A DNA stretch of 32,000 nucleotides from Candidatus Iainarchaeum sp. (GTDB lineage: Archaea; Iainarchaeota; Iainarchaeia; Iainarchaeales; JAZDEL01): the NCBI GenBank assembly GCA_043808785.1, contig JAZDEL010000008.1:30001-62000 (forward strand), given 5' to 3'. Positions 9,963-31,652 of this stretch are shown in pieces. Each line of letters starts with the position of its first letter. The first letter of the stretch is position 1. The notes beneath the pieces were generated by a model. The model was not told the origin of the DNA and ran no database searches. It saw only the letters and a list, made by a program, of their open reading frames with translations. A program made the position numbers and the translations under genes.

Positions 9963-10027
9963 CAGAAAGCACCCCTTGCGCACAATTCTTCAGCCATGTG
10001 TTCACCTTGCGCTTTCGCATCATTTTT

Positions 10028-10219
10028 TCAGCATTGCCTCAACCGCACCCATACCTTCCGCATTGCCTCGACAGGGCAAATGAGGATGCAGGAGCCGCAT
10101 TCGATGCATTTTTTAGCGTCGATTTCGATGCGGGTTTCGTTAAGCGTTATCGCCGCCTTCGGGCACACCCCGACACATCCGCCGCAGTAGCAGCACTTCT
10201 TCGGGTCGTTCACAATCAT
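10028..10219 (-). CDS. 2x[4Fe-4S] ferredoxin (63 aa)
   Basis: Two Cys clusters are present: CCYCGGCVGVCP and CIECGSCILICP. It is directly upstream of and co-oriented with GGR, an arrangement known from Methanosarcina, where the ferredoxin donates electrons to GGR. Confidence 0.85.
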   Translation of the reverse strand: MIVNDPKKCCYCGGCVGVCPKAAITLNETRIEIDAKKCIECGSCILICPVEAMRKVWVRLRQC

Positions 10220-10379
10220 TTTCGCGCCTTCAGAATTTTTGGGCGGCTCACAACCATCGTTTCGCCTTCATGAATGGGGGCTGGTAAATTTTAAAAAGCG
10301 GTTTGTTGGCACACACGGCAGATTAGGCTAAGGAAGTTATTTATATGACTGACGCCTATCCTTTATCGGGGCCTTGACA

Positions 10380-10940
10380 ATGCGCTGGCGCAGAGAGAAA
10401 AATCCGCTTCTGGAGGAAGGTGCCTTTAGAAAAGGCGGGTTTTCGGACGCTTTTTTCCTGCATAAAAACGGCTCCGGCGGCAAACCTACCGCGTTCATGA
10501 CGCGTTTGAAAGAACTTTCAATCAAACACGGCGAAGAGCCGGCAGCACTTGCCCAGCAGTACTATGTCGCGGCAAAAGAGGCGGGGCAACCCTGCCATGG
10601 AAGAGAACTTGCGGGGGCATTGTTAATTTCAGTTTTCCGCAAAAATCCCGCATTGCTCCAGGAATGTGCCGGCATCCTGGAAAAAAGATATTCTCTGAAA
10701 AGAAAGGAAGTACACGGCAAGTTTGAATCCCAAAAGGCACTGAGGCTTGAAAATCATTTTGCGCTGGCAGCATCCTATTGCAAAAAGATTGCAAATTCAA
10801 AGATTGAGGCCAAAAAATTCATAGGCATGGCATCAGGGTTTTCCAAACTTATAGGCGCTGAAGAGAAGGTGAAGGAACTGGTGAGCGACCCTGAATTTGT
10901 AGAGCGCATGAAAGCGTATTTTGGGGGCAAATTCAAATGA
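10380..10940 (+). CDS. Hypothetical protein (186 aa)
   Basis: The ATG at 10380 lies about 35 nt after agttatttatatg (10334-10346). The all-helical sequence gives a weak cyclin/TFB-repeat-like impression (AAKEAGQPCHGRELAGALLISVF) that I cannot support further. Confidence 0.5.
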   Translation: MRWRREKNPLLEEGAFRKGGFSDAFFLHKNGSGGKPTAFMTRLKELSIKHGEEPAALAQQYYVAAKEAGQPCHGRELAGALLISVFRKNPALLQECAGILEKRYSLKRKEVHGKFESQKALRLENHFALAASYCKKIANSKIEAKKFIGMASGFSKLIGAEEKVKELVSDPEFVERMKAYFGGKFK

Positions 10941-19131: not shown

Positions 19132-20115
19132 TCACACGAACTGCTCGTAGTTCGTTGAATTAAACCTGTATAAAAATCTTCTTATGCGCTGCCCGTTGAA
19201 AGTGTATTTCTGCAGCACCTCTTTCTTTTCCCCCGAAAATTCGGAAAATGCGTGGCTGCGCGAGGGGTCGAGGAGAGTGAACTTTCCCGCGCGTTCGTTA
19301 GCTGCTTGCCCGGCTCCCGCATGCCCTGTTCCTGCGTGCACGGTTCCGGCGCGCTCGGTTATGACAAACGCGTGAGTTGTGAGGTTCTCGAGCTCCGCAA
19401 TCACGACCTCGGCGCTGGAGTCGCCGAGTGCGGAAAGCAGGGAGCAGAGGAAAATCGCAAGGTCCTCGTCATCGGCAATTTTGCCGCGCATTATTTCCTT
19501 GGGCGTGAGCCAGAAATTGATTTCCAAATCGCTTTCGACGTAATTGATGTCGCGCTGGAGGAAATCGAGGATGCGCGCAGCGGCCTGCGGATAGTGCTTT
19601 TCGAAGGAATAATCCGCGTGCCTGTATTCCTGCAGAAGGCTCTGGATTGTCAAATCTTTCTCATCCACAAGCGATTTCAACTCGCCGACGGTTTTTTTCT
19701 CGAATTCGTTTATCAGGTCGGAGTAGCGCGTGAGAAGGGTGCGGTAAAGCCTGGACCTCAAGTCCTGCACCTGCTCGTGCTGCTTCTCGTTTCCTGAAAC
19801 GGAAATTGTCGCGCAGCCTTTGAGGGCGTTGCACTCCTTGAGCGCGCCCATGAGTTTCGCTTTTGTTACCGCAAGTTCCTTTTTCAGGCGCGTGTTCTCG
19901 CGCTCAAGGTCTATGTAAGCGGGCCCCTGCAGGGAAGCAAGGTTGTTCTTGAGGTTTGAAATCTGCTCGGATAATTGCTCCCTGCGCGCATCATCATGCT
20001 CGTCCCTAAGTTCGGATTCGAGTTCCTGTATGCTGCGCCATATTGCCTGCTCCGCCGATGTCTTGCGGAGTTTCTCTATAGGGAGGCTGGATTCGGCATT
20101 TTGCTGTGAATGCAT
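19132..20115 (-). CDS. Coiled-coil protein with a C-terminal transglutaminase-like (Cys-His-Asp) core candidate (327 aa)
   Basis: The N-terminal ~120 aa is heptad-rich. The C-terminal DLAIFLCSLLSALGDSSAEVVIA...TTHAFVITE...GKFTLLDPS places Cys (19444-46), His (19372-74) and Asp (19267-69) in TGase-core order. The ORF-track extension to 20592 crosses the intergenic region and the pilin gene, so I reject it. Confidence 0.55.
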   Translation of the reverse strand: MHSQQNAESSLPIEKLRKTSAEQAIWRSIQELESELRDEHDDARREQLSEQISNLKNNLASLQGPAYIDLERENTRLKKELAVTKAKLMGALKECNALKGCATISVSGNEKQHEQVQDLRSRLYRTLLTRYSDLINEFEKKTVGELKSLVDEKDLTIQSLLQEYRHADYSFEKHYPQAAARILDFLQRDINYVESDLEINFWLTPKEIMRGKIADDEDLAIFLCSLLSALGDSSAEVVIAELENLTTHAFVITERAGTVHAGTGHAGAGQAANERAGKFTLLDPSRSHAFSEFSGEKKEVLQKYTFNGQRIRRFLYRFNSTNYEQFV

Positions 20116-20223
20116 ACGAATATATTTATCTGGGCGGAAAGCCTCAAAAAAGGCACGGTTTTGGTTAGGCACGCAGGAATAAGCGAAAAAGCGCCTGGCT
20201 TCGGCAGGGTTCGGGAAACGGTT

Positions 20224-20324
20224 GCGAAAAAACAAAAAACGCGCGGGTTTTGCGCGGGCACGGGAAAACCGGGCATGGTTTGCCGGACGCGGGGCAAAAA
20301 ACAAAAAACCGCCCGCGGTTTGCG
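20224..20324. repeat. Two direct repeats sharing the 14-mer aaaaaacaaaaaac followed by a GC-rich c/gcgcggttt-type segment (20227-20254 and 20296-20324)
   Basis: Read directly. They lie in the divergent spacer between the TGase-like gene and the first pilin gene. Confidence 0.8.
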
Positions 20325-20344
20325 ATTTACGCGCGCGGGAAAAC

Positions 20345-20371
20345 GAAAGGTAGGGTTTTATATTAATAAAA
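20345..20371 (+). promoter_or_regulatory. BRE/TATA-like box gaaaggtagggttttatattaataaaa for the pilin genes
   Basis: The TATA core at 20357-20366 ends about 21 nt before the ATG at 20387, which implies a leaderless transcript. Confidence 0.5.
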
Positions 20372-20386
20372 ATTACATATAGTGCC

Positions 20387-20824
20387 ATGGTTTCAGTTTT
20401 TGGAAAGGGGAATGGGCGAAAAGGGCAGGTGGCGATAGAGTACATACTCATGAGCGCGTTCCTTCTGCTGGTCGTGGGCGTGCTGTTCGTGCACTCATAT
20501 ACGCAGTATGACAGGACAATGAAGATCGAGATGACGCAGCATGCCGTGGATTCGCTTGGCGAGGCTGCGGACCAGGCGTATGCGCTCGGCACAGGAAGCG
20601 TGCTTTTTGTCGATATGGACCTGCCTTACGGAATCGAGGGCTACACGGTTACGCAGAAGAACATCACATTAAAGTTGAACCTAATAGGGGTGCAGGACAC
20701 GGTATTTACGAGGACTGTTGCCGACCTGAATATGTTTTCCGCAATTCCAACATCCCCGACAAGGCACAGGATGAGGGTCAGCATGGGGGCGACCAACATA
20801 ACGCTGCAGGAGGTCTTCGACTGA
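20387..20824 (+). CDS. Archaeal type IV pilin-like protein with class III signal peptide (145 aa)
   Basis: The N-terminus is MVSVFGKGNGRKG|QVAIEYILMSAFLLLVVGVLFV: a basic residue-Gly, then Q, Glu at +5, then a hydrophobic helix. Confidence 0.8.
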   Translation: MVSVFGKGNGRKGQVAIEYILMSAFLLLVVGVLFVHSYTQYDRTMKIEMTQHAVDSLGEAADQAYALGTGSVLFVDMDLPYGIEGYTVTQKNITLKLNLIGVQDTVFTRTVADLNMFSAIPTSPTRHRMRVSMGATNITLQEVFD

Positions 20825-20864: not shown

Positions 20865-21224
20865 ATGCGTAGAGGACAGGCTTCCATCGAGATCCTGATG
20901 GCTGTGGGGCTTATAATCATAATATTCATCTTTGTGAGCTGGTTTGTCTCAACAAGGGCGGCGGATACGGAATTCGTACACACGCAGTACGAGAACCAGC
21001 GCGTGTGCGAAAGGCTGGCATCCATAATTTCTTCCGTTTACGCGGCAAAGTCCGGGACTGAGATAAAGACCACTATAGAGAGCAATGCCCAAATAGTGAA
21101 CAACAGCATACACATAGGGCAGTATGCCTGCGACTTCGTCGGCAAGGCAAACCCTGCAACCCTGGCTGCGGGGCCGATAAGTGCGCGCAATCAGGGCGGA
21201 ATCGTGATTTTGCAAAACCCGTGA
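20865..21224 (+). CDS. Archaeal type IV pilin-like protein with class III signal peptide (119 aa)
   Basis: The N-terminus is MRRG|QASIEILMAVGLIIIIFIFVSWFV. Confidence 0.8.
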   Translation: MRRGQASIEILMAVGLIIIIFIFVSWFVSTRAADTEFVHTQYENQRVCERLASIISSVYAAKSGTEIKTTIESNAQIVNNSIHIGQYACDFVGKANPATLAAGPISARNQGGIVILQNP

Positions 21225-21290: not shown

Positions 21291-21824
21291 ATGATGGATG
21301 TTGCTTTTCCAGGGAAATCCCCTGCGTGCGGAGTAAGGGGGCAGATTGCGGCAATAGACTTCCTGTTCGGGCTTTTCATATTCCTGCTCATAGTTGCGTG
21401 GCTGCTCAGCGTGTGGACAAACAACATGGAGGTCGCGATAGGCGAGCAGAATTTCGATGAGATGAGGATGAAGGGCTTCCAGATCATGGACGTGCTTGTA
21501 AGGACGCCAGGCACGCCCGAGAACTGGGAGGGCACGGGCATCACAAACATAAGCACGATAGGGCTGGCATACAAGGACAGGGTTGTGGATGCCAACAAGC
21601 TCGCGAAGTTCATATGGCTCGGCGATATCGCGCACGAATATGCAAAAACAAAGGAGATATTCGGGATTGTGCCTTACGATTACGAATTCACGCTTGACGG
21701 CATCGAGGACTTCAACACCGGCAAGCCCATAGAGGGCGCACCCATAGTTATCTCGATGGAGAGAACAGTGCTGTATCTGGGGAGCGATGCAAATGCGAAG
21801 ATTGCCATTTACTGGGAAGAGTAG
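21291..21824 (+). CDS. Pilin-like protein (177 aa) with class III-type N-terminus
   Basis: The N-terminus is MMDVAFPGKSPACGVRG|QIAAIDFLFGLFIFLLIVAWLL. Confidence 0.65.
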   Translation: MMDVAFPGKSPACGVRGQIAAIDFLFGLFIFLLIVAWLLSVWTNNMEVAIGEQNFDEMRMKGFQIMDVLVRTPGTPENWEGTGITNISTIGLAYKDRVVDANKLAKFIWLGDIAHEYAKTKEIFGIVPYDYEFTLDGIEDFNTGKPIEGAPIVISMERTVLYLGSDANAKIAIYWEE

Positions 21825-24087
21825 GGCTGCCTGCACGCGGCGTGCGGGCAGGGGCGTGGCAATATCCGTCGATGCCCTGCTTGCGGTAATATTGATAGCC
21901 ACGCTCGCCACTTTCGGGAAGTTCGCGCTCTACCAGGAGGCTGCGCCCAATAACCTTGTAAAGATGCAGACAATGCAGCGCACGGACGACGTGTTCACTA
22001 CAATGGTAAACTCGGGTTACATGATGGATGTCATGGACGACAACGGCTTCAACTCGGCTTCCGTGCAGGCGATTTACGCAAAGATGAACGCCATGACGCC
22101 GAGCAGCCTCGGGCTCAGGATTGCGATGAGGAAGTACGACATAAATTTCATGCAGTGCAGGGAATCCAAGACATTCGAGGCGTGCTTCCCCGATGAAAGC
22201 ATGAGCGAGATAATTGAGGGTGGCACTGTGCCGCCAGATACCGAGGTGCTGCACGGCAGGAAGGTGTTTGTAAAGCAGGAAAAGCCCGGGGAGTGCGGAG
22301 GCGATTATAACGGGGGGTATGCGCAGGGCGGAATCGCGGATGCGCTTTGGAACGGCATCCTGATGTTCGCTGCCTACGGAAACGCGGACATTAACTTCAG
22401 CATAGATGTCAGCCCCGAGAGTGAGCTCAATTGCGATGAAGAGGCGGATGTGTCGCTTGGAATAAGCGTGGGCATCGGCGGCAGGGACCCTGTCGATGTT
22501 GCGCTTGTTATGGACCGCTCGGGGAGCATGGATGATTACACTATGTTTGACAGGAACGTGCTTACGGGGCAGTTTGACGACGGCAACAAAACCTGCAACT
22601 GCGCAAGCTGGATGTGCAGCCTGTGCGGCAACAGCTGGTGCTCGTGGTGCTATACTTACGGGAACTGGCAGACGCTCGGCACTTTCACAATAGACAGCAA
22701 CCAGGACACGAATGTGACGATGAGGTATGCGGGATACAGCGGGGGCAGCAAGCCGAAGCTGAGGATTGTGAGCCCCGGTGGAACTACTTACGGCGGGACC
22801 GCGGCTTCTGTAGCGGCCAGTTATCCTGTACAGCTAGGCACCTGGACCGCGCAGGGATGGAGCGACGACTGGATAGATTACAATGTGAGCGTATATTACA
22901 GGAAGATCGATGTCTCAAAGGACGGGGCGCAGTATTTTGTGGGGCTTGCGGACTGGGAGGAACAGGACCAGCTTGCGCTGGTTTCCTACAACCAGAGCGC
23001 AACGCTGAACCAGGCGCTGACTACGGACAAGAACAAGGTGTGGGTTGCGATAAACGGGCTGAGCGCCGGCGGCAATACCGCGACAGGGGACGCGATTTAC
23101 AAGGCGACGGACGAACTCATGGGCGGCACGAACCAGAATTCGGATGCGATGAAATTCCAGGTCTTGCTGAGCGACGGGCAGACGAATACCGGCAGTTCAT
23201 CCTCGGCTGCGGCGCAGGACGCAAAAAACAAGGGCATAATAATTTACACAATAGGCCTTGGCGAGGATGTCGATGCGAACGAACTGCAGGCGATTGCGGA
23301 CATAACCGGCGGGCAGTACTATTATGCAAACGACCAGAACGCGCTTCAGGAACTGTATGAAATTATTGCGGGGAATATAGGGGACGACGCTTCGGGGGGA
23401 TATGCAATGACCAATGTCATTGTTAAGATTCCCGTGCCCCCGGGCACAACCATAACCGACACGGGGAACGGCGAATTCCAGGAGGGGGATGAAAACTTCC
23501 TCGTGTTCAATGTCGGGGACATGGAGTACAGTTCGGAGTGGCAGGGGAATTATTCCCTTGTTTATCCCTGCTCGGAAGAGCCGAGCTGCTCGGCTTCCGA
23601 AAAGGTTTTTCCAGAAGAGGGGGCGTACGTGAGTTACATAGACGTGAACGGTATCCCGCAGAATATCGACTGGGATGTCAATGTTACCCTGGATTTCCTC
23701 TACCGCGACCTTGCAATAGAGATAATCGGCGGCGAAATCACGGGCGAGAACGAGGTTTACCTCGATGTGAATGCGAAGAACCCGGGTTACCTTGACACAG
23801 TGGCCACGGACATAAAGTTCTACCTCAACGGCACCGGAGGGGACGGGGGCGAGTACATTACAAGCAGGAATGTTTCGGCAATGTGCGGCGGGTTAAGTGA
23901 AGGGTGCGATAACAGCAGCGAAGAGTTCTACGATATTTTCATAAACAAGGAGGGTTATATTTATGCGGTGATAAATGAGGATTCGGAGAACGAGGAATGC
24001 CCGAACAGGAATGTGGATTCGATAAATTGCTACGAGGGCGCTAAGACGCAGTATTTCACCCTCGATTACTGGGTGTGGCTTAAATGA
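21787..24087 (+). CDS. Large pilin-anchored surface protein: class III-type N-terminus + VWA domain with intact MIDAS + CARDB-like C-terminal domain (766 aa)
   Basis: The N-terminus is ...RRAGRG|VAISVDALLAVILIATL. The MIDAS is DVALVMDRSGSMDD (D243 at 22513), with ...GGNTATGDAI..., ...VLLSDGQTN... and ...IIIYTIGLGEDVD...ITGGQYYYA. The C-terminal GENEVYLDVNAKNPGYLDTVATDIKFYLNG is CARDB-like. There are many N-x-S/T sequons. It overlaps the upstream gene by 38 nt. Confidence 0.85.
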   Translation: MQMRRLPFTGKSRAACTRRAGRGVAISVDALLAVILIATLATFGKFALYQEAAPNNLVKMQTMQRTDDVFTTMVNSGYMMDVMDDNGFNSASVQAIYAKMNAMTPSSLGLRIAMRKYDINFMQCRESKTFEACFPDESMSEIIEGGTVPPDTEVLHGRKVFVKQEKPGECGGDYNGGYAQGGIADALWNGILMFAAYGNADINFSIDVSPESELNCDEEADVSLGISVGIGGRDPVDVALVMDRSGSMDDYTMFDRNVLTGQFDDGNKTCNCASWMCSLCGNSWCSWCYTYGNWQTLGTFTIDSNQDTNVTMRYAGYSGGSKPKLRIVSPGGTTYGGTAASVAASYPVQLGTWTAQGWSDDWIDYNVSVYYRKIDVSKDGAQYFVGLADWEEQDQLALVSYNQSATLNQALTTDKNKVWVAINGLSAGGNTATGDAIYKATDELMGGTNQNSDAMKFQVLLSDGQTNTGSSSSAAAQDAKNKGIIIYTIGLGEDVDANELQAIADITGGQYYYANDQNALQELYEIIAGNIGDDASGGYAMTNVIVKIPVPPGTTITDTGNGEFQEGDENFLVFNVGDMEYSSEWQGNYSLVYPCSEEPSCSASEKVFPEEGAYVSYIDVNGIPQNIDWDVNVTLDFLYRDLAIEIIGGEITGENEVYLDVNAKNPGYLDTVATDIKFYLNGTGGDGGEYITSRNVSAMCGGLSEGCDNSSEEFYDIFINKEGYIYAVINEDSENEECPNRNVDSINCYEGAKTQYFTLDYWVWLK

Positions 24088-26282
24088 ACAAAACGAAAAA
24101 TCAGGCATGCCGCAGGGGCTACACGCTGTCCCTCGATGCAATGCTTGCTCTGCTCCTCGTGATTGCATTCATAGGTTTCAGCAGGGTTGTGCCTTTCGAG
24201 GCCGGCACCACAAGCAACCTGCCGAAGATGCAATCCGTGCAGAGGGCGGACGATGTTTTCACTACGATGATAAACAGCGGATATATGTGGCAGAAAATAG
24301 ACGAGGTCGGGCTGAATAACGAGGCGGCGGAAAACATATACGCCAAGATGAGGGGCATGCTGCCTGACAGTGTCGATTTCAGGATTGTGATAAGGAAGTA
24401 CCAGGTGAATTTCGACCAGTGCAGGCTTGGCAAGACATTTGAGGCGTGCTTCCCGAGCGATGGCTTGTCGGAAAGGATTGCGGGCAAGGTGCCGCCCGTA
24501 AGGAGCGAGGTTGTGCACGGCAGGGGCGTATTTGTGAAGAAGGAGCCTGTCGGGATGTGCACTGTGGAGGGCGGGCTTGCGCCAAAGGAAGGCGGGGTTT
24601 CGGAGAAAAAATCCACTGCATGGCTTGAAGGGGAAATGATGGGGCTTGAGATGACAACAAGCGTAGACCCTCCAGCCCCGCCGTGCCCCCCGAATTCGCT
24701 TTTGTGCGACGGCACTGCTACAACACACCTTGGTCTAAATGCGATAGCCGGGGAGGGAAGGGCGCCGGGGCATGTGCTGTTTGGGATTGACATGGGCAAC
24801 CCTATGGGCAAGAGGTACGTGACCCAGAGCGGCTTCAACCTTGTCGGCCCCTGCAGCAAGCTAGGGACAACCATGGGGACGTTCCAGAACACAACAGATT
24901 ACTCTTTCACGCTTAAATTAAGCGACTGCTTGGGGGCCAAAATTACAGCCATCAGCCCTACTCTCGCGGAATACGGGCCGGGTGACTATGTCGATGTTTA
25001 CCGCCCGACAGCGCTTGGCACCTGGACTGTTCAATGCAGCAATAAAGATGCATTGTCGTGCAATGTCATTATGACGCGCACAAATTTAGAGGCGGGGCAG
25101 ATGTTTCTTGAAGGCGTAGTGGCTACAACCGATTGGAAACTCGAGGGCGCTGAAGGCCCCGACGAGGATGCGTTCACGACATTTCAGGACACCACATCAA
25201 CGCTTCTCGTGCCGTTAACAACTGACGAGGATTCGGTACTGCCTGCAATAGACGGCCTGCTAATCTCCCAGCTTGGCAGCAATGCGGATGTTGCTGCAGC
25301 GGTAATTGCGGCAACCGATATACTAAAAACAACCCCTGAAGGGGAGGTAAGGATATTTATTCCTGTCACAAACATCCACACAGGGGGGAGCATAGCCGAT
25401 GCCGCGAACTATGCCAAGGCAAACGGCGTGGTGGTTTACCCTGTTGGTGCCGGGTATAATTCGGATATGGTTGCACTAAACGAATTAGCATTAATTACAG
25501 GGGGAGAGGCGTGGCTTCTGACCGAAACTGACGCACTAATAGATTATTATACACTCATGGCCCAGAAACTGAAGGAGAGCATGATAAACGGCAACCGCAT
25601 AGACAATGCGCAGCTCAGGATTCCTGTTCCCGCGGGGCAGCTGGTTACCGAACACCTTGGCGGGGAGATAATACCGGAGGGCGAGGAAGAGTTCCTTGTT
25701 TACGACCTTGGAACGCTTGATGTCGGCGAGGGGTGGAGCACGGATTATTCCGTAGTGTTCCAGTGCAATGACGACCACGCATGCCAGAGCGGGAACACGC
25801 GGACTTTCCCGCAGCCTGTAACGGAAATAACCTACATGGATATAGATGGCTTGTTCGGCTCTGTGCCCTGGGACCCGCTTGTGGAGGTGCCTTTCAAATA
25901 CCGCGACCAGGAGGTTAAAATAATGGGCGGCAGGATTGTGGGGGAGAACCAGGTTTACCTTGATGTGAATGTTGCGAATGTCGGGCATCTTGATACGGTG
26001 GATACGTCGCTCAGGTTTTACAAGGACAGCACAGGCGATGACGGCACGTACCTTACCGCAAGGGGCGTAAGCGCGATGTGCGGCGGGCTCGAGGCGGGGT
26101 GCGGGGACAATGAGGCGTTGTATTACGATGTTCCGCTGGCAGCGGAGGGCTATCTTTACGCGATTGTGAACAAGCTCGGGGAAAATTCCGAGTGCCCCAC
26201 AAACAGCCAGGATGTCATACTGTGCCAGCTAGGGGCGAAGACAGAGTATTACACTATCGATTATTATGTGTGGCCGAAATGA
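24084..26282 (+). CDS. Paralog of the preceding protein with a degenerate VWA/MIDAS (732 aa)
   Basis: The N-terminus is MNKTKNQACRRG|YTLSLDAMLALLLVIAFIGF. Shared blocks are QRADDVFTTMINSGYM, KTFEACFP, LGTWTVQ, VYLDVNVANVGHLDTV and VSAMCGGL, plus the C-terminal ...GAKTEYYTIDYYVWPK. The MIDAS position reads HVLFGIDMGNPMG, so the DxSxS is lost. The ATGA start/stop overlaps the upstream gene. Confidence 0.8.
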   Translation: MNKTKNQACRRGYTLSLDAMLALLLVIAFIGFSRVVPFEAGTTSNLPKMQSVQRADDVFTTMINSGYMWQKIDEVGLNNEAAENIYAKMRGMLPDSVDFRIVIRKYQVNFDQCRLGKTFEACFPSDGLSERIAGKVPPVRSEVVHGRGVFVKKEPVGMCTVEGGLAPKEGGVSEKKSTAWLEGEMMGLEMTTSVDPPAPPCPPNSLLCDGTATTHLGLNAIAGEGRAPGHVLFGIDMGNPMGKRYVTQSGFNLVGPCSKLGTTMGTFQNTTDYSFTLKLSDCLGAKITAISPTLAEYGPGDYVDVYRPTALGTWTVQCSNKDALSCNVIMTRTNLEAGQMFLEGVVATTDWKLEGAEGPDEDAFTTFQDTTSTLLVPLTTDEDSVLPAIDGLLISQLGSNADVAAAVIAATDILKTTPEGEVRIFIPVTNIHTGGSIADAANYAKANGVVVYPVGAGYNSDMVALNELALITGGEAWLLTETDALIDYYTLMAQKLKESMINGNRIDNAQLRIPVPAGQLVTEHLGGEIIPEGEEEFLVYDLGTLDVGEGWSTDYSVVFQCNDDHACQSGNTRTFPQPVTEITYMDIDGLFGSVPWDPLVEVPFKYRDQEVKIMGGRIVGENQVYLDVNVANVGHLDTVDTSLRFYKDSTGDDGTYLTARGVSAMCGGLEAGCGDNEALYYDVPLAAEGYLYAIVNKLGENSECPTNSQDVILCQLGAKTEYYTIDYYVWPK

Positions 26283-26306: not shown

Positions 26307-27335
26307 ATGAAAAATTGCCTTGTGCGGAAAGGGATGGGCGAGAGGGGCGTGCTTTTCACATTCATGGTTTTCATGATTGTGATGATAGTGCTCGGCCTCG
26401 GCACGACTATAAAGGGCGGCAGGCTGAAGTTCGAGTCGGATGTCACCAAAACCTCGGCACTGGAGGGCACGAGCAACAAATTCGGCAACATAATGAACGA
26501 TGTCGTAAATTTCGACAAAAACAACCTTGCGAGGAACATACAGAAGAGAATTATGCCGTTCGATTATGAGTATGACGGAAACGCCATCCGGGTAGGGCAG
26601 GAACTGCCGATGAAGGTCGGGATGCTCGACCTTTCGTTCGACATACTGAACGCGTACGATATCTTCATTTCGGACACGAACTCGCAGACTACATACGACC
26701 TGATGCATGTCGACGTGAATGCGGCAAAAAACAAATATTGGGGCGGCGACAGGAACAGCATACAATTCATGATAAAGCCGCAGTGCCTGAAGTTTGTTGT
26801 TGTCGACGAGAACGTTACGGGCTTCTTCGGCGGGATTGCGGACGAGGGCTGCGCATCGGGCTTCTCAGTCCAGAGCCTAAGGAGGTATGACCTCAATATC
26901 CTGATAAAACAGGCCAACCAGGCATATAACAATATTGTGTGCAATTTTGCAGGGTCCCCCCCCGAGGAATGCCCCACGGAAATTTTCAGTTCTGGCGACA
27001 ATGACCCTTACTTCGAGATGTTTGTTGACGACAGTTTGTGCACAAACTGCCAGCTCGGGGGGCAGACAAAGCACATATACGGGCATTACGACCCGGCATC
27101 CAACAATACTGTGGGTGTTTCGTGCGCAGGGGGGCCGGAAATATGCGGCGTCACGATAAACCCCATACTTGTGACTGTCAACAGCGGCATGAAGGCGGAG
27201 AACAAGGGCGGCGCTTTGGACGTAAACATGAGGGCGGAACTCGGGGGAAATATAATGCGGTTTTATTTCATGGACTTTAATTTTGCGGTAAGCCGCCCGG
27301 ATTTCAACACCATGATGACGAATGTCGGGCAGTGA
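26307..27335 (+). CDS. Cys-rich secreted/anchored pilin-like protein (342 aa)
   Basis: The N-terminus is MKNCLVRKGMGERG|VLFTFMVFMIVMIVLGLG. The mature part has multiple Cys (CASG, CNFAG, ECP, CTNC, SCAGGPEIC). Confidence 0.55.
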   Translation: MKNCLVRKGMGERGVLFTFMVFMIVMIVLGLGTTIKGGRLKFESDVTKTSALEGTSNKFGNIMNDVVNFDKNNLARNIQKRIMPFDYEYDGNAIRVGQELPMKVGMLDLSFDILNAYDIFISDTNSQTTYDLMHVDVNAAKNKYWGGDRNSIQFMIKPQCLKFVVVDENVTGFFGGIADEGCASGFSVQSLRRYDLNILIKQANQAYNNIVCNFAGSPPEECPTEIFSSGDNDPYFEMFVDDSLCTNCQLGGQTKHIYGHYDPASNNTVGVSCAGGPEICGVTINPILVTVNSGMKAENKGGALDVNMRAELGGNIMRFYFMDFNFAVSRPDFNTMMTNVGQ

Positions 27336-27468: not shown

Positions 27469-29226
27469 ATGGCTGAAGGCACTGGAAAGGAAGGCATCGG
27501 CGAGGCGATACTGAATTTCTTCAGGTCGCTCAGGAGGACGAAGATTCGCGGGAAAAAACAGCAGGATGCCGAGGCGCCGGGGGGCGAACTTGCCGAAGAA
27601 ATTGCACCCGAAGAAAAAAAGGCGGGGAGGGGGAAGGCTGCGCCTGGAAAGGCTGCGGGGGGCTGGGAAGAGCGGGGGGAAACCGCCGAAAAAACAGCCG
27701 GCAGCGGAGAGGCAAAAGCGCGGGAAGGCGAAACCGCGGGAATGGGGCCTGAAGAAAAGAAAATGCTCGAGAAGGAACTCAGTGAGTGGAGGTCAAAAGT
27801 AGATGCGCTTACAAAAAAGGTGGAGAACCTTGAGGAAAGGCTCAAGTCAAACACAATATCCCCCAACCAGGCGGTAAGCGGGATTCAGGTTGTTTACGGG
27901 GAAGTGGACAGGGAGGAGAACTCGATAAACAGGGAGATGCGCGCAACAAAGGCGGTGATGAAGGGCACTGTTTTCGATTATTACAAGAGGCGCATGACGC
28001 TGGACGAGTTCAGGAAGAGGATGCTCGAGTACAGGGGCAGGCTGCGCGTGCTGCAGGTCGAGAAAGCGGAATTGAAGAAGGAGGGCTCGAAGATAAGGGA
28101 AATGGGCGGGACTGTAAAGCAGTTCGCGCTGCAGATGCCTGCAAACGCAACAGTTGTGCCGGGCGGGAGTGCGGAGATGGACGCGGTATTCGGAAAAGGC
28201 GGCGGGGGCGGGAAAGGTAAAATTATAGGCGTGATTGGGGGCGGGGGCGGTGAGCAATCAGGAGGCGGGGCGGCGCCCGGGGGGAGCGGCAATTCCGCAG
28301 GCGGCGGGATAGGCGGCGCTGTTGAGGGCGTTGTTTCCGGAGTTGTGGGGGCAGGGTATGCAGCAGCATCCGCACTTAAGGGCGGGAAAAAAAGCGATGC
28401 GGGTTCGCGCGCGGCGCTGGCTGGTGCGGAACGCGCCGAGAGGGAGGCAAGGGCTTCCGCTGGAAAAGCCGTGGCGGGAAAAGGTGCAAAGGGGCCGAAA
28501 GGCGCAAGGGCATTTGCGGTAAACGTCTCGGGCAGGGATGAAGGGGGGGCGGGAAAGGCTGCCAAGCCGGCGCTCCCGAGGATGCCGAATGGGAAGGGGG
28601 AGCGGGAAGGTGCGGATGCAGGAGGGGGGGAAGAAGTGGATAAGGATGCCCTTGAGGAAAGGTGGGGGGGCGCGGCAGGGGTGAAGGAAATACTTGAGGC
28701 AAAGGCGGGGGGAAAAATCGACAGCGAAAGGCTTGCGGAACTGGAGAAAAAAATAAACGCCCTGCTCAAGGCGCACAAAATTTCCGAAAGCGACCTCGGG
28801 GAAAAGGCCGGGGAGATGGACACCTCGAAAGTCATAGAGAGTTTCAACAAGCTTATAGATTTGGTGGAACTTGAGAAGAGGGCAAAAAGGGCGGGCGTGC
28901 TGCAGGAGCCGACAAACACCCTGGAGGTTTCCGCTGTCGGGCTGGGCTCGCCAAAAAAGGTGGAGGCACTTAAGGGGATTGCGATAGACCTGAAGAAGCA
29001 CCGCATAGTGACGGATTTCGACCGCGTGCTCTCGCTCATAAAGGAAAAAAAGAAGATGGGGCTTATTGAGGTCGCGGCAACGCTCGGCATAGACAAGAAA
29101 TGGGCGGAGGAGTGCTGCGAAATACTCGAACAGAGCGGGCTTGTGGAAATAGTATACCCGCCTTTCGGAAAGGCGGGGGTAAGGCTTTCGGGATATGTTG
29201 AGGAGAAGAAGCCCAAGAAAAAATGA
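27469..29226 (+). CDS. Coiled-coil / Gly-Ala-Lys-rich low-complexity protein with a wHTH-like C-terminal domain (585 aa)
   Basis: The coiled coil is EKELSEWRSKVDALTKKVENLEERLK and the low-complexity part is GKGGGGGKGKIIGVIGGGGGEQSGGGAAPGGSG... The C-terminal FDRVLSLIKEKKKMGLIEVAATLGIDKKWAEECCEILEQSGLVEIVYPPFG looks like a winged helix. It is directly upstream of the ATPase. Confidence 0.6.
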   Translation: MAEGTGKEGIGEAILNFFRSLRRTKIRGKKQQDAEAPGGELAEEIAPEEKKAGRGKAAPGKAAGGWEERGETAEKTAGSGEAKAREGETAGMGPEEKKMLEKELSEWRSKVDALTKKVENLEERLKSNTISPNQAVSGIQVVYGEVDREENSINREMRATKAVMKGTVFDYYKRRMTLDEFRKRMLEYRGRLRVLQVEKAELKKEGSKIREMGGTVKQFALQMPANATVVPGGSAEMDAVFGKGGGGGKGKIIGVIGGGGGEQSGGGAAPGGSGNSAGGGIGGAVEGVVSGVVGAGYAAASALKGGKKSDAGSRAALAGAERAEREARASAGKAVAGKGAKGPKGARAFAVNVSGRDEGGAGKAAKPALPRMPNGKGEREGADAGGGEEVDKDALEERWGGAAGVKEILEAKAGGKIDSERLAELEKKINALLKAHKISESDLGEKAGEMDTSKVIESFNKLIDLVELEKRAKRAGVLQEPTNTLEVSAVGLGSPKKVEALKGIAIDLKKHRIVTDFDRVLSLIKEKKKMGLIEVAATLGIDKKWAEECCEILEQSGLVEIVYPPFGKAGVRLSGYVEEKKPKKK

Positions 29227-29250
29227 AATTTTCACGGGAAGGTGAGGTGC

Positions 29251-30762
29251 ATGGCGGATAAGCAGATAAAGGAATATGAACTCGAATCCGAGGGAATGAA
29301 GGTAAACATACGGATTGTGGAGATGGAGGGCGAATTCGTAAAGAGCTATTTTGTGGACATACCCGAATTCGGCCCCGGCACGGAGGCGCTGCTGCAGAAC
29401 CTGAAGGGCTACCTTGTTACGGACACTAGCATAAAAACGGAGAAGATGTTCGACGCGAAATTCATAGATTCGCTGAGGAAGATATTCAGGGAGCGCGCGG
29501 AAATAATACTCTCCAAGGAGCTGCCGCATGCGGACCAGAGGACGAAGGACCTGCTCATAAGCATGCTGCTGCACGAGATGCTCGGGCTCGGCAAGTTAGA
29601 GTTCATGCTTGCCGACGGGAACCTCGAGGAAGTGGTCGTGAACACGGCAGCGGAGCCTGCGTGGGTCTACCACAAGGAGTTCGGGTGGCTCAAGACGAAC
29701 ATAACGTTCGCGAACGAGGGGCAAACGCAGAACTTCGCAAGCATAATAGCAAGGCGTGTGGGGAAGCAGATAACCGTGCTGAACCCGCTGCTTGACGCGC
29801 ACCTCATAACAGGGGACAGGGCGAATGCGACGCTTTTCCCGATTTCGGGGAAGGGGAACACGATAACGATAAGGCGATTTAGGCGCGACCCGTGGACTGC
29901 CGTGGATTTCATAGCGAACAAAACTGCAACAATTGAACTTATGGCACTTGTGTGGTCCGCAATACAGTATGAAATGAACCTTATAGTGAGCGGCGGCACG
30001 GCTTCGGGAAAGACCTCGTTCCTGAACGTTTGTATGCCGTTCATACAGCCGAACCACAGGATTGTGAGCATAGAGGACACGCGCGAAATTTCATTGCCGA
30101 GCTTCCTGCACTGGGTGCCAATGACCACAAGGGAGCCTAACCCTGAAGGGCACGGCGGGGTGAGCATGCTTGATTTGCTTGTGAACTCGCTCAGGATGAG
30201 GCCTGACAGGATAATTGTGGGTGAAATAAGGAGGCAGAAGGAGGCGGAGGTGCTTTTCGAGGCGATGCACACCGGGCACAGCACTTACACAACAGTACAC
30301 GCAAACACAGCGGACGAAACAATAAGGAGGATGGCGAACCCGCCAATAGCGATACACCCCACGATGCTTGAGGCAGTGCACCTCAATGTGGTCATGTTCA
30401 GGAACCGCAGGCTGGGGATAAGGCGCATACTGGAACTTGCGGAGTTTATACCTGAAAAGAGGTCCGAGACCGAGGAAAATATAAAGCCGAACGTGCTTTA
30501 CAGGTGGAAGCCTGCAAAGGACGTAATAGAGAAGCACGCGGACAGCATAAGGTTCTTCGACGAAATGAGCCTGCACACGGGAATGACACGCAGCGAGATA
30601 GACAAGGACCTCAAGAGCAAGCAGGGCGTGCTTGAATGGATGATAAATCAGAAGATCCGCTCCATTGAGGACGTCGGGGCGGTAATGGCAAATTATTATT
30701 CAAACGAGGACGAAATACTCGGCTTCGTCAAACAGAAAAAGAAACCGCCGTTTGTGAGATGA
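29251..30762 (+). CDS. Type IV filament secretion ATPase (FlaI/ArlI / TadA-CpaF / VirB11 superfamily)
   Basis: Walker A is VSGGTASGKTSFLN, Walker B/Asp box is RPDRIIVGEIRRQKEAEVLFEAMHTGH and the His box is STYTTVHAN. The ATG at 29251 lies behind SD ggtgaggtg; the ORF-track start at 29242 is GTG. Confidence 0.92.
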   Translation: MADKQIKEYELESEGMKVNIRIVEMEGEFVKSYFVDIPEFGPGTEALLQNLKGYLVTDTSIKTEKMFDAKFIDSLRKIFRERAEIILSKELPHADQRTKDLLISMLLHEMLGLGKLEFMLADGNLEEVVVNTAAEPAWVYHKEFGWLKTNITFANEGQTQNFASIIARRVGKQITVLNPLLDAHLITGDRANATLFPISGKGNTITIRRFRRDPWTAVDFIANKTATIELMALVWSAIQYEMNLIVSGGTASGKTSFLNVCMPFIQPNHRIVSIEDTREISLPSFLHWVPMTTREPNPEGHGGVSMLDLLVNSLRMRPDRIIVGEIRRQKEAEVLFEAMHTGHSTYTTVHANTADETIRRMANPPIAIHPTMLEAVHLNVVMFRNRRLGIRRILELAEFIPEKRSETEENIKPNVLYRWKPAKDVIEKHADSIRFFDEMSLHTGMTRSEIDKDLKSKQGVLEWMINQKIRSIEDVGAVMANYYSNEDEILGFVKQKKKPPFVR

Positions 30763-31652
30763 TGAAGCAGGCATCGATACCGTTCAGCCCTTTGCCGGCA
30801 AAAATGCTGCTGCAGCTTTGCGGGCGCTTTAAGGGAATGGGGGCTAGGATAACAAACGCTTTCCCCTACATGAAAGTGGAGCTGAAGCAGGCGGAACTCG
30901 GGGTTGACGAGGCTGAATACGGCGCCGCAATGGTCTTCCTGTTCGGGTTCTATTTTGTGGCGGCAACCATAGTGGTTTATGCTATGGGGCTGCAGTTCTT
31001 CCCTGAAAACGCGATTATTGCGGCGCCGACACTCGGCGGAATATTCGCATTCCTTGTGCTGATACAGCTAAGCATGTTCCCGAAAATAAAGGTAAAGAAG
31101 AAGGTAAGGGACATAGAGCGCAACCTTATTTTTGCGCTTAGGACCCTGCTCATCGAAATAAAATCCGGCGTCACGCTTTTCAACGCGATAAACGTGGTTG
31201 CGGAAGGGCGCTACGGTGCGGTAAGCAGGGAATTCAGCAAGGCCGTTGAGAAGATAAATACCGGCACGAGCGAGGAGGCCGCGCTTGAGGAAATCGCCGC
31301 CCAAAATCCCTCGCTTTTCTTCAGGAGGGCGATGTGGCAGCTGCTTAACGGCCTTAAAACCGGCGGGGACATAAGCAATGCGGTTGCCGCAATGGTGGAT
31401 ACGCTTGCAAAGGAGCAGGCAAATCAGGTGAGGAAATACGGCTCGTCGCTGAGGCTGCTCTCGCTTGTTTACATGATGCTTGGCGTGATAATACCTGCAT
31501 TGGGGCTGACTTTCCTCATAATACTCGGGTCGTTCCCGCAGATAGCGATAACGGAGATGATGTTCTGGGCACTGCTTGCGGCAATAATCCTCGGGCAGTT
31601 TATGTATCTCGGCATGCTTAAATCCGGAAGGCCGAACCTCATGGGTGAGTGA
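30759..31652 (+). CDS. T2SSF-domain platform membrane protein (TadB/TadC/FlaJ-like half, 297 aa)
   Basis: LIFALRTLLIEIKSGVTLFNAINVVAEGRYG... is a T2SSF motif and several TM helices are present. The ATGA overlaps the ATPase stop. Confidence 0.85.
   Translation: MMKQASIPFSPLPAKMLLQLCGRFKGMGARITNAFPYMKVELKQAELGVDEAEYGAAMVFLFGFYFVAATIVVYAMGLQFFPENAIIAAPTLGGIFAFLVLIQLSMFPKIKVKKKVRDIERNLIFALRTLLIEIKSGVTLFNAINVVAEGRYGAVSREFSKAVEKINTGTSEEAALEEIAAQNPSLFFRRAMWQLLNGLKTGGDISNAVAAMVDTLAKEQANQVRKYGSSLRLLSLVYMMLGVIIPALGLTFLIILGSFPQIAITEMMFWALLAAIILGQFMYLGMLKSGRPNLMGE

Follow-up and report, generated by a model that had tools for sequence, protein, structure and literature searches.

Proteins with von Willebrand factor type A (VWA) domains are known to act with type IV filaments. 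Piliation of Streptococcus sanguinis depends on the vWA pilin PilB. The metal-ion-dependent adhesion site (MIDAS) of this protein is not needed for the pili to form but is essential to their function (PMC8179133). In a model of the pilus tip, PilB and a second bulky modular pilin, PilC, are placed next to each other on a small cap pilin (PMC9934059). TadG and PilY1 are also known VWA partners of type IV filaments; as for archaea, a 2016 census of their type IV pili (T4P) mentions only cytoplasmic VWA proteins of the ArnB type, and ArnB is never encoded in T4P loci (PMC4858521). Here we describe two adjacent genes in a 32,000-nt stretch of the 63-kb contig JAZDEL010000008.1 (positions 30,001 to 62,000; hereafter the window), which comes from a Candidatus Diapherotrites/Iainarchaeum metagenome-assembled genome (MAG) of the Iainarchaeia (DPANN archaea). 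The genes encode paralogous pilin-like VWA proteins, A with an intact MIDAS and B with a largely lost one. Both are already in NCBI, each entered as a 'vWA domain-containing protein' from the source organism. Our literature searches turned up no report of this Iainarchaeia operon, and none of a pilin fused to a VWA in archaea or of paired pilins of which one has an intact and the other a degenerate MIDAS.

As A and B would be, PilB (PDB 7b7p; PMC8179133) is a minor pilin encoded in a pilus locus, with a vWA grafted onto its pilin module and inserted 'arms' flanking the MIDAS, and it was matched by A in Foldseek (E = 1.3e-8). Unlike them, it is bacterial, 454 aa long and bears the IPR012902 N-methylation motif, whereas A and B are archaeal and ~750 aa long, with a large β-sandwich insert behind VWA strand β1 and two further β-domains; no sequence relationship is detectable beyond the VWA. 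Neither A nor B gave a profile match to the IPR012902-type bacterial N-methylation/Glu5 motif, and their acidic residue is an Asp at +6. The PilA-PilB-PilC tip, with two bulky modular pilins 'like open wings' and a small cap pilin without Glu5 (PMC9934059), resembles what we propose for A, B and the product of the next gene, C342. PilB and PilC, however, carry unrelated modules (vWA and lectin) and are not paralogs differing in their MIDAS, and a complex of A with B would follow by analogy.

Other VWA proteins share single features with the pair. The sortase-assembled tip adhesins SpaC, PitA and RrgA and the type V tip protein Mfa5 sit at the pilus tip, have a VWA with inserted β arms and are among the best Foldseek matches of both proteins, but their assembly systems are unrelated and the resemblance is convergent; the C-termini here (A ...DYWVWLK, B ...DYYVWPK) show no LPxTG sorting signal. 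PilY1 of P. aeruginosa and TadG of Tad pili also bear a VWA and are associated with minor pilins of type IV filaments, but PilY1 is not a pilin, and TadG has a TadE-like N-terminus, for which no Pfam match was obtained in A or B at E<=1. The Sulfolobus regulator of archaellation ArnB (PDB 8s05, 5a8j) has an archaeal VWA plus β-sandwich and a link to type IV filaments, and was matched by both proteins in Foldseek; it is a cytoplasmic phospho-regulator, whereas the N-termini of A and B are secretory and pilin-like. Finally, the VWAs of vWF A3, the Sec23/24 trunk and TFIIH p44 are functional without a MIDAS, serving in metal-independent or protein-protein contacts, and are matched by the B model and the B-lineage profile, although their contexts are unrelated and none is a pilin. 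Lacking these features, A and B are not members of the PilB-type, sortase or TadG families; they would work like these proteins but are analogues.

A tandem pair of pilin-like VWA proteins

The open reading frames (ORFs) of A and B lie at 21787..24087 and 24084..26282, as an earlier note on this DNA had reported. The two proteins are co-linear over their full length (36% identity, BLASTP E = 4e-139), every shared block quoted in that note is present in the alignment, and its motif positions are exact in both proteins (DRSGS, GGNTATGD and LLSDGQTN in A; DMGNP, GSNADVAA and IPVTNIHTGG in B; Table 1). The start of B lies within the stop codon of A (cttaaATGAac, an ATGA overlap) and B would be translationally coupled to A.

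All five MIDAS residues are present in A (D243, S245, S247, T431 and D463), which by its residues would be MIDAS-competent. In B, four of the five positions are lost and the first Asp of DxSxS (D236) is retained, so that the earlier statement that every MIDAS ligand is replaced holds for four positions and fails for one. The same note had considered that orthologs of A might also lack the MIDAS residues; a census registered on a family hidden Markov model (HMM) instead found the full D-S-S-T-D set in 99 family members and only a handful of degenerate ones, P0058, P0087, P0118 and P0115 among them. In L7B, the B ortholog encoded in a second Ca. Iainarchaeum MAG (locus L007), the site is half lost: DxSxS has become DRGEF, yet the Thr and the second Asp are kept. 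Window B is further along in MIDAS loss than L7B.

The Pfam VWA model (PF00092; cut-off 23.8 bits) matched A with 70.7 bits (2.2e-19) and B with 26.3 bits (9.8e-6). The AlphaFold2 (AF2) model of A has a mean pLDDT (predicted local distance difference test) of 80.5. Its N-terminal helix of 49 residues (28-76) lies against an α/β head, which ends near residue 171 and whose strands (108-171) have pLDDT 75-90. After the head come a small β unit and VWA strand β1, which bears DRSGS; a β-sandwich of ~120 residues (253-371) directly behind β1 interrupts the VWA, which resumes at 372-536, and two β-sandwich domains make up the C-terminal end. The model of B (pLDDT 76.1) has the same order of elements, with the helix broken at residues 35-44. 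In Foldseek, VWA structures were matched with E = 5e-15 by A and E = 5e-13 by B, the latter being B's top match. The matches of A include VWA 4fx5, SpaC, PitA, Mfa5 and S. sanguinis PilB, and the best multi-domain matches of both proteins are the armed-VWA pilus tip adhesins SpaC, PitA and Mfa5, with S. sanguinis PilB and archaeal ArnB also found; B was matched as well to MIDAS-less VWAs such as Sec24 and TFIIH p44.

Because A-type sequences dominate the alignment behind the B model, the VWA fold of B was checked without them. A profile built from the two B-type proteins alone matched 4rck (2.9e-6) and vWF A3 (1.2e-4), and L7B reached 60.1 bits on the Pfam VWA model. By profiles and models, then, B keeps the VWA fold, and the possibility raised in the earlier note that B has no such fold can be set aside. 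A Cys/Trp-rich loop in the insert of A is deleted in both B-lineage proteins, as seen in a six-way alignment.

Both N-termini have a class-III-like leader ending in RG and followed by a hydrophobic stretch (RG/VAISVDALLAVILIATLA in A, RG/YTLSLDAMLALLLVIAFI in B; the slash marks the end of the leader). Together with the helix and α/β head of the A model and a T4P operon that includes an ATPase and a platform protein, this agrees, at the level of sequence and model, with the earlier description of the proteins as pilin-anchored. The argument for an extracellular, glycosylated location from abundant N-x-S/T sequons did not survive: neither the 10 sequons of A (7.0±2.3 in shuffles) nor the 2 of B (4.2±1.9) represent an enrichment.

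The NCBI gene model of A (P0001, 743 aa, MAISVD...) starts 23 codons past the ATG at 21787 and drops the charged prepilin-type leader (window 21787-21855). The longer start agrees with the short overlap with the upstream pilin gene in relatives.

Recurrence of the pair and uneven divergence of B

A belongs to a family of ~750-1200 aa proteins that is nearly confined to Iainarchaeia-like and other DPANN MAGs, with the N-terminal consensus KGFxFSxD ([KR]G-F-x-F-S-x-D) followed by a hydrophobic helix. Pairs were sought in one genome per species (185,579 species) and with the family HMM over all ORFs of the 92 loci retrieved. Full-length tandem pairs were found in this way only in the window and in L007, which is colinear with the window gene for gene. 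The assemblies of L092 and L093, near-identical strains of L007, have the same pair on contigs that stop inside B. The active/dead pair, whose recurrence the earlier note had proposed to check, is thus present in a second species-level lineage, and the ATGA junction between A and B is seen in the window, L007 and L092.

B-type proteins are rare. A word-indexed homolog search with B returned B itself only, and an exhaustive HMMER search of 1.84 billion representatives returned only one further B-type protein (P0055), nothing of this type being found there beyond a fragment 96% identical to L7B. Scanning metagenomes with B-specific peptides found nothing, and scanning with A-clade peptides found three distant loci only.

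L7B is nearest to window B (414 bits, against 308-335 bits to A proteins), and the two are sisters with 100% bootstrap in neighbor-joining trees. In the same trees, four A proteins (those of the window and L007, P0002 and P0003) and the two B proteins form a clade with 100% bootstrap, within which window A groups with P0002 and P0003 (88%). Because the two B proteins are sisters with full support, the simplest history would be a single old duplication at the base of this small clade, with B kept in two lineages and lost in one.

The divergence of B is uneven along the protein. Over the pilin head, A and its orthologs share 52-57% identity with B and 47-53% with one another, and in the last C-terminal domain the values are 50-54% for B and 60-66% among A orthologs. 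In the VWA, the A orthologs share 63-68% identity mutually and 58% with a distant member, whereas B shares only 28-30%. Measured against the outgroup P0005, identity hardly differs between A and B in the head (24% for each) or the C-terminal domain (35% and 33%), but it differs sharply in the VWA (58% and 28%), so the acceleration is specific to the VWA and its insert. Both B proteins retain 18 of the 81 VWA columns that are invariant in A proteins, and a further 29 are retained by one or the other only; 10 show the same change in both, and 24 are changed differently. The B ORFs are nevertheless intact in lineages that are now 36% identical (732 aa in the window, 797 aa in L007), and the conserved Cys columns are retained.

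Comparison of L007 with L092 and L093 gave a further contrast between the genes. The A genes are 100% identical (2265 nt) and ~4.9 kb of flanking sequence contains two single-nucleotide differences, whereas a 113-nt patch of B (L007:12639-12751; B gene nt 336-448, codons 112-150) contains 47 differences and a 6-nt indel. The patch sits in the Cys-x8-Cys loop region of the pilin head and looks, from its sequence, like a recombined or hypervariable surface loop. A diversity-generating retroelement was rejected as its source since the substitutions are not adenine-specific, and gene conversion from A was rejected on sequence. All substitutions but one between the L007 and L092 B genes lie inside the patch, so dN/dS is uninformative.

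L7B (L007:12304-14697) also has a ~50 aa Cys-rich insertion (aa ~165-215; CTYCGNGVCDDDEGENCSTCSGDCLPTGLECC...) in the linker between pilin head and VWA, which occurs neither in window B nor in any A protein. Elsewhere in the family, the metagenome variants at L088:78-2015 and L089:6001-7938 have no β-sandwich insert, ~150 residues being absent between VWA β1 and the remainder, and P0010, P0017 and other members of 900-1200 aa carry LVIVD repeats. At L091:9893-13374 the VWA-pilin gene appears as two overlapping ORFs (975 and 275 aa), which could reflect a frameshift, a pseudogene or an assembly error, and its MIDAS Thr and Asp regions are unaligned. In the complete Ca. Iainarchaeum genome CP064981 (L038 and L039, ~9998-10918) ~450 nt separate the two parts of the VWA match, suggestive of an additional insertion in that domain. 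Proteins of ~150-190 aa that match just the N-terminal module may be truncated genes and were not used as evidence of stand-alone pilins.

A putative two-winged pilus tip and its alternatives

We propose that A and B are two modular minor pilins standing side by side at one pilus tip, A as a metal-dependent adhesin and B as a second wing without a MIDAS, and give this reading a probability of roughly 0.5. The paralogy of the proteins, their folds and MIDAS states, the operon setting, the recurrence of the pair and its phylogeny are results of the present analysis, while the processing of the proteins, their location at the tip, the proximity of A to B and the nature of the ligand would follow by analogy with described systems. 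The prepilin-type leader and pilin module would insert both proteins into the filament, and since each carries ~600 residues of extra domains (a VWA interrupted by a β-sandwich 'arm', then two β-sandwich domains), they could fit only at its tip. A, the conserved and universal member, would bind a surface ligand in a metal-dependent way through its intact MIDAS; in a DPANN archaeon, this ligand is plausibly on a host or partner cell. B would have arisen from one old tandem duplication, keeping the parts for assembly (the pilin head and the last C-terminal domain) and losing metal-dependent binding. The module that changed in B would be the binding head, and the conserved modules those that insert the protein into the filament and hold it among the minor pilins. 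Because B kept the pilus-building parts but lost metal-dependent binding, we place it next to A in the same tip complex, where it would have been subfunctionalised to a structural role or a metal-independent contact. As the only pilin-like protein of the operon without an acidic residue at +5/+6, C342 is a candidate for the cap subunit, by analogy with GspK and PilA.

Attachment to other cells is regarded as the way of life of DPANN archaea. The pilus operon defined here is conserved in Iainarchaeia, and the largest of its subunits is a fusion of a pilin-like module with a VWA; A, as an archaeal counterpart of the bacterial modular pilin PilB, is a concrete candidate adhesin for this attachment. 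The pair amounts to a small natural experiment, one protein with a metal site and one without it that has long been retained: B has lost most of its metal site and yet was kept through speciation. Such a contrast separates the role of a VWA pilin in pilus assembly from its role in adhesion. No new principle is involved, since pilus tip adhesins with a VWA, modular type IV pilins and VWA domains lacking a MIDAS have each been described before.

Several observations weigh against a shared tip. About 40 other loci have a single VWA gene and no B, and at L001 and L002, the loci of P0003 and P0002, which are the closest relatives of A, the A gene is followed straight by the C342 ortholog; B is dispensable for the pilus system. 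The MIDAS of P0076 (L090:10001-12316) is degenerate, reading TKSGS, Ser and Asn, and P0076 is the sole VWA gene in an otherwise standard operon, so the MIDAS is not indispensable to the core role of the family and MIDAS-poor members can work alone. In 53 of the 81 A-invariant VWA columns, either just one B protein has changed or the two have changed to different residues, which points to relaxed or diversifying evolution still going on in the B VWA and not to a newly fixed site or interface. In addition, the Pfam and NCBIfam pilin models match neither A nor B, and the AF2 input alignment for B consisted mainly of A-type sequences. The proposal of the earlier note, a ligand-binding subunit paired with a pseudo-VWA partner, is therefore upheld only in part: both proteins are pilin-like and belong to one T4P operon, but P0076 is MIDAS-poor on its own and the VWA of B has diverged independently in two lineages.

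A serious though on the whole unlikely alternative is that B is an independent, neofunctionalised adhesin whose VWA and insert bind another ligand without metal, as vWF A1 and A3 do, and which either caps pili of its own or takes turns with A, not being A's partner. B has diverged mainly in the VWA and insert, which are exposed at the surface, and has conserved its assembly modules; the best PDB matches of the B-lineage profile include vWF A3, a domain that binds collagen without a functional MIDAS. Three observations favour this alternative: there is no MIDAS-intact paralog in the operon of the MIDAS-poor P0076, nearly all relatives run the system without B, as expected for an optional extra, and the variable patch between near-identical strains is in B while A has none. 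The authors of the PilB/PilC model likewise could not exclude separate tips (PMC9934059). In every case seen, however, B directly follows an A gene and is joined to it by the ATGA overlap, and just 10 of the 81 A-invariant VWA columns share a derived residue in both B lineages, unlike a conserved new binding site.

It is improbable that A and B are not filament subunits but surface VWA proteins anchored in the membrane, at the base of the machine or elsewhere on the cell, with the N-terminal helix as a signal anchor. TadG was once hypothesised to fix pili to the membrane (PMC4858521), and both the lack of a match to curated pilin models and the NCBI start of A, which removes the leader, would suit such a role. 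Nevertheless, the family-wide [KR]G-F-x-F-S-x-D motif with its hydrophobic helix is prepilin-like, the 49-residue helix of the model is packed on an α/β head, and the gene always lies between small pilin genes and another pilin-like gene.

A variant of the shared tip, in which B is a regulatory pseudo-VWA on the MIDAS face of A and serves as an internal ligand or gate, seems to us far-fetched; as in the internal-ligand control of integrin αI/βI, the tip would then be a switchable adhesin triggered by force or by the host, and the strain-variable patch in the pilin head of B would tune host specificity. Slow decay of B as a redundant duplicate with no function of its own is very unlikely: the lost MIDAS, the fast-evolving VWA, the loss of B in the L001/L002 lineage and its restriction to two species-level lineages among 1.84 billion representatives and 185,579 species genomes would fit it, but the B ORFs are intact at 36% identity, the Cys columns and the ATGA coupling are retained, and the pilin head and second C-terminal domain are as conserved as in A orthologs.

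The pilus operon and its surroundings

On the plus strand, the window has a single closely packed gene string from 20.4 to 31.7 kb, in the order three pilin-like genes, A, B, C342, D585, ATPase and T2SSF (Table 1).

Table 1 Features of the A/B pair and the pilus operon (window coordinates)
Feature	Position	Strand	Basis or remark
Small pilin-like protein 1 (pil1), 145 aa; RKG/QVAIEYIL, Glu +5	20387..20824	+	N-terminus; Pfam Class_IIIsignal (just below cut-off)
Small pilin-like protein 2 (pil2), 119 aa; RRG/QASIEILM	20865..21224	+	N-terminus; orthologs L002 (47%), L007 (55%)
Pilin-like protein 3 (pil3), 177 aa; VRG/QIAAIDFLF	21291..21824	+	N-terminus; orthologs L002 and L007
Protein A, 766 aa, modular pilin-like VWA protein, MIDAS intact	21787..24087	+	Pfam VWA 2.2e-19; AF2; Foldseek
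A: leader	to ~aa 23	+	
A: helix and pilin head	21856-22299	+	
A: VWA β1	22483-22542	+	
A: MIDAS DRSGS, aa 243-247	22513..22527	+	Motif position; conserved in family
A: β-sandwich insert	22543-22899	+	
A: Cys/Trp-rich loop of insert (NKTCNCASWMCSLCGNSWCSWCYTYGNW)	22585..22668	+	Six-way alignment
A: rest of VWA	22900-23394	+	
A: MIDAS Thr loop GGNTATGD, aa 428-435 (T431)	23068..23091	+	
A: MIDAS Asp strand LLSDGQTN, aa 460-467 (D463)	23164..23187	+	
A: two C-terminal β-domains	23395-24084	+	
Protein B, 732 aa, A paralog, MIDAS degenerate	24084..26282	+	BLASTP, Pfam, AF2, Foldseek, B-lineage profile
B: pilin module	24120-24566	+	
B: VWA β1	24759-24812	+	
B: DMGNP, aa 236-240, replaces DxSxS; Asp kept, both Ser lost	24789..24803	+	
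B: shortened insert	24813-25082	+	
B: rest of VWA	25083-25586	+	
B: GSNADVAA, aa 398-405, replaces MIDAS Thr loop; T to A (A401)	25275..25298	+	
B: IPVTNIHTGG, aa 426-435, replaces LLSDGQTN; acidic residue in no alignment register	25359..25388	+	
B: C-terminal β-domains	25587-26279	+	
C342, larger pilin-like protein, 342 aa; ERG/VLFTFMVFMIVM (ERG/VLFTFMVFMIVMIVLG)	26307..27335	+	N-terminus; orthologs L001, L002, L007
D585, coiled-coil, Gly/Ala/Lys-rich, low-complexity	27469..29226	+	Weak coiled-coil Pfam matches only
Pilus assembly ATPase, archaeal ArlI/FlaI-PilB type	29242..30762	+	Pfam T2SSE 5.9e-34
Platform membrane protein, TadC/ArlJ-like, T2SSF	30759..31652	+	Pfam T2SSF 7.6e-17

In the family as a whole, the order is three small pilin-like genes, one VWA gene, a gene for a ~330 aa protein, a variable gene, the ATPase and two T2SSF genes, frequently with phosphoglycerate kinase and GAPDH upstream. 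The same operon, with ATPase, platform protein and other pilins, is present in L003, L004, L006, L007 and L090. The acidic residue of the pilin-like N-termini is Glu5 in pil1 and pil2 and Asp6 in pil3, A and B. Pil1 scored 23.3 bits with Pfam Class_IIIsignal, slightly below the 23.7 cut-off, and has an ortholog in L007 (48% identity). The pil3 gene overlaps the start of A, and a short overlap of this kind with the VWA gene also occurs in L003, L004 and L006. C342 is kept directly downstream of the VWA gene or genes, with a gene of similar size in L003, L004 and L090. The ATPase reached 256 bits with the FlaI-like NCBIfam model, under its equivalog cut-off.

The slot occupied by D585 varies widely in length and sequence among relatives, with partial homology to D585 in L002 and L007. 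The D585 gene has a GC content of up to 0.61, and strong GC and AT skew is seen at 28-29 kb. In L006 (15876-18668) the pilus ATPase gene is split by an intein with a LAGLIDADG homing endonuclease (domain order T2SSE, Intein_splicing, LAGLIDADG_3, T2SSE). Rfam and tRNA scans of the window gave no matches. Upstream of the operon and divergent from it, an ORF at 19132-20592 on the minus strand encodes a protein with a transglutaminase/CEP76-peptidase-like domain; the N-terminus of this 486-aa ORF is probably largely non-coding, and syntenic counterparts are present in L003, L006, L092 and L093.

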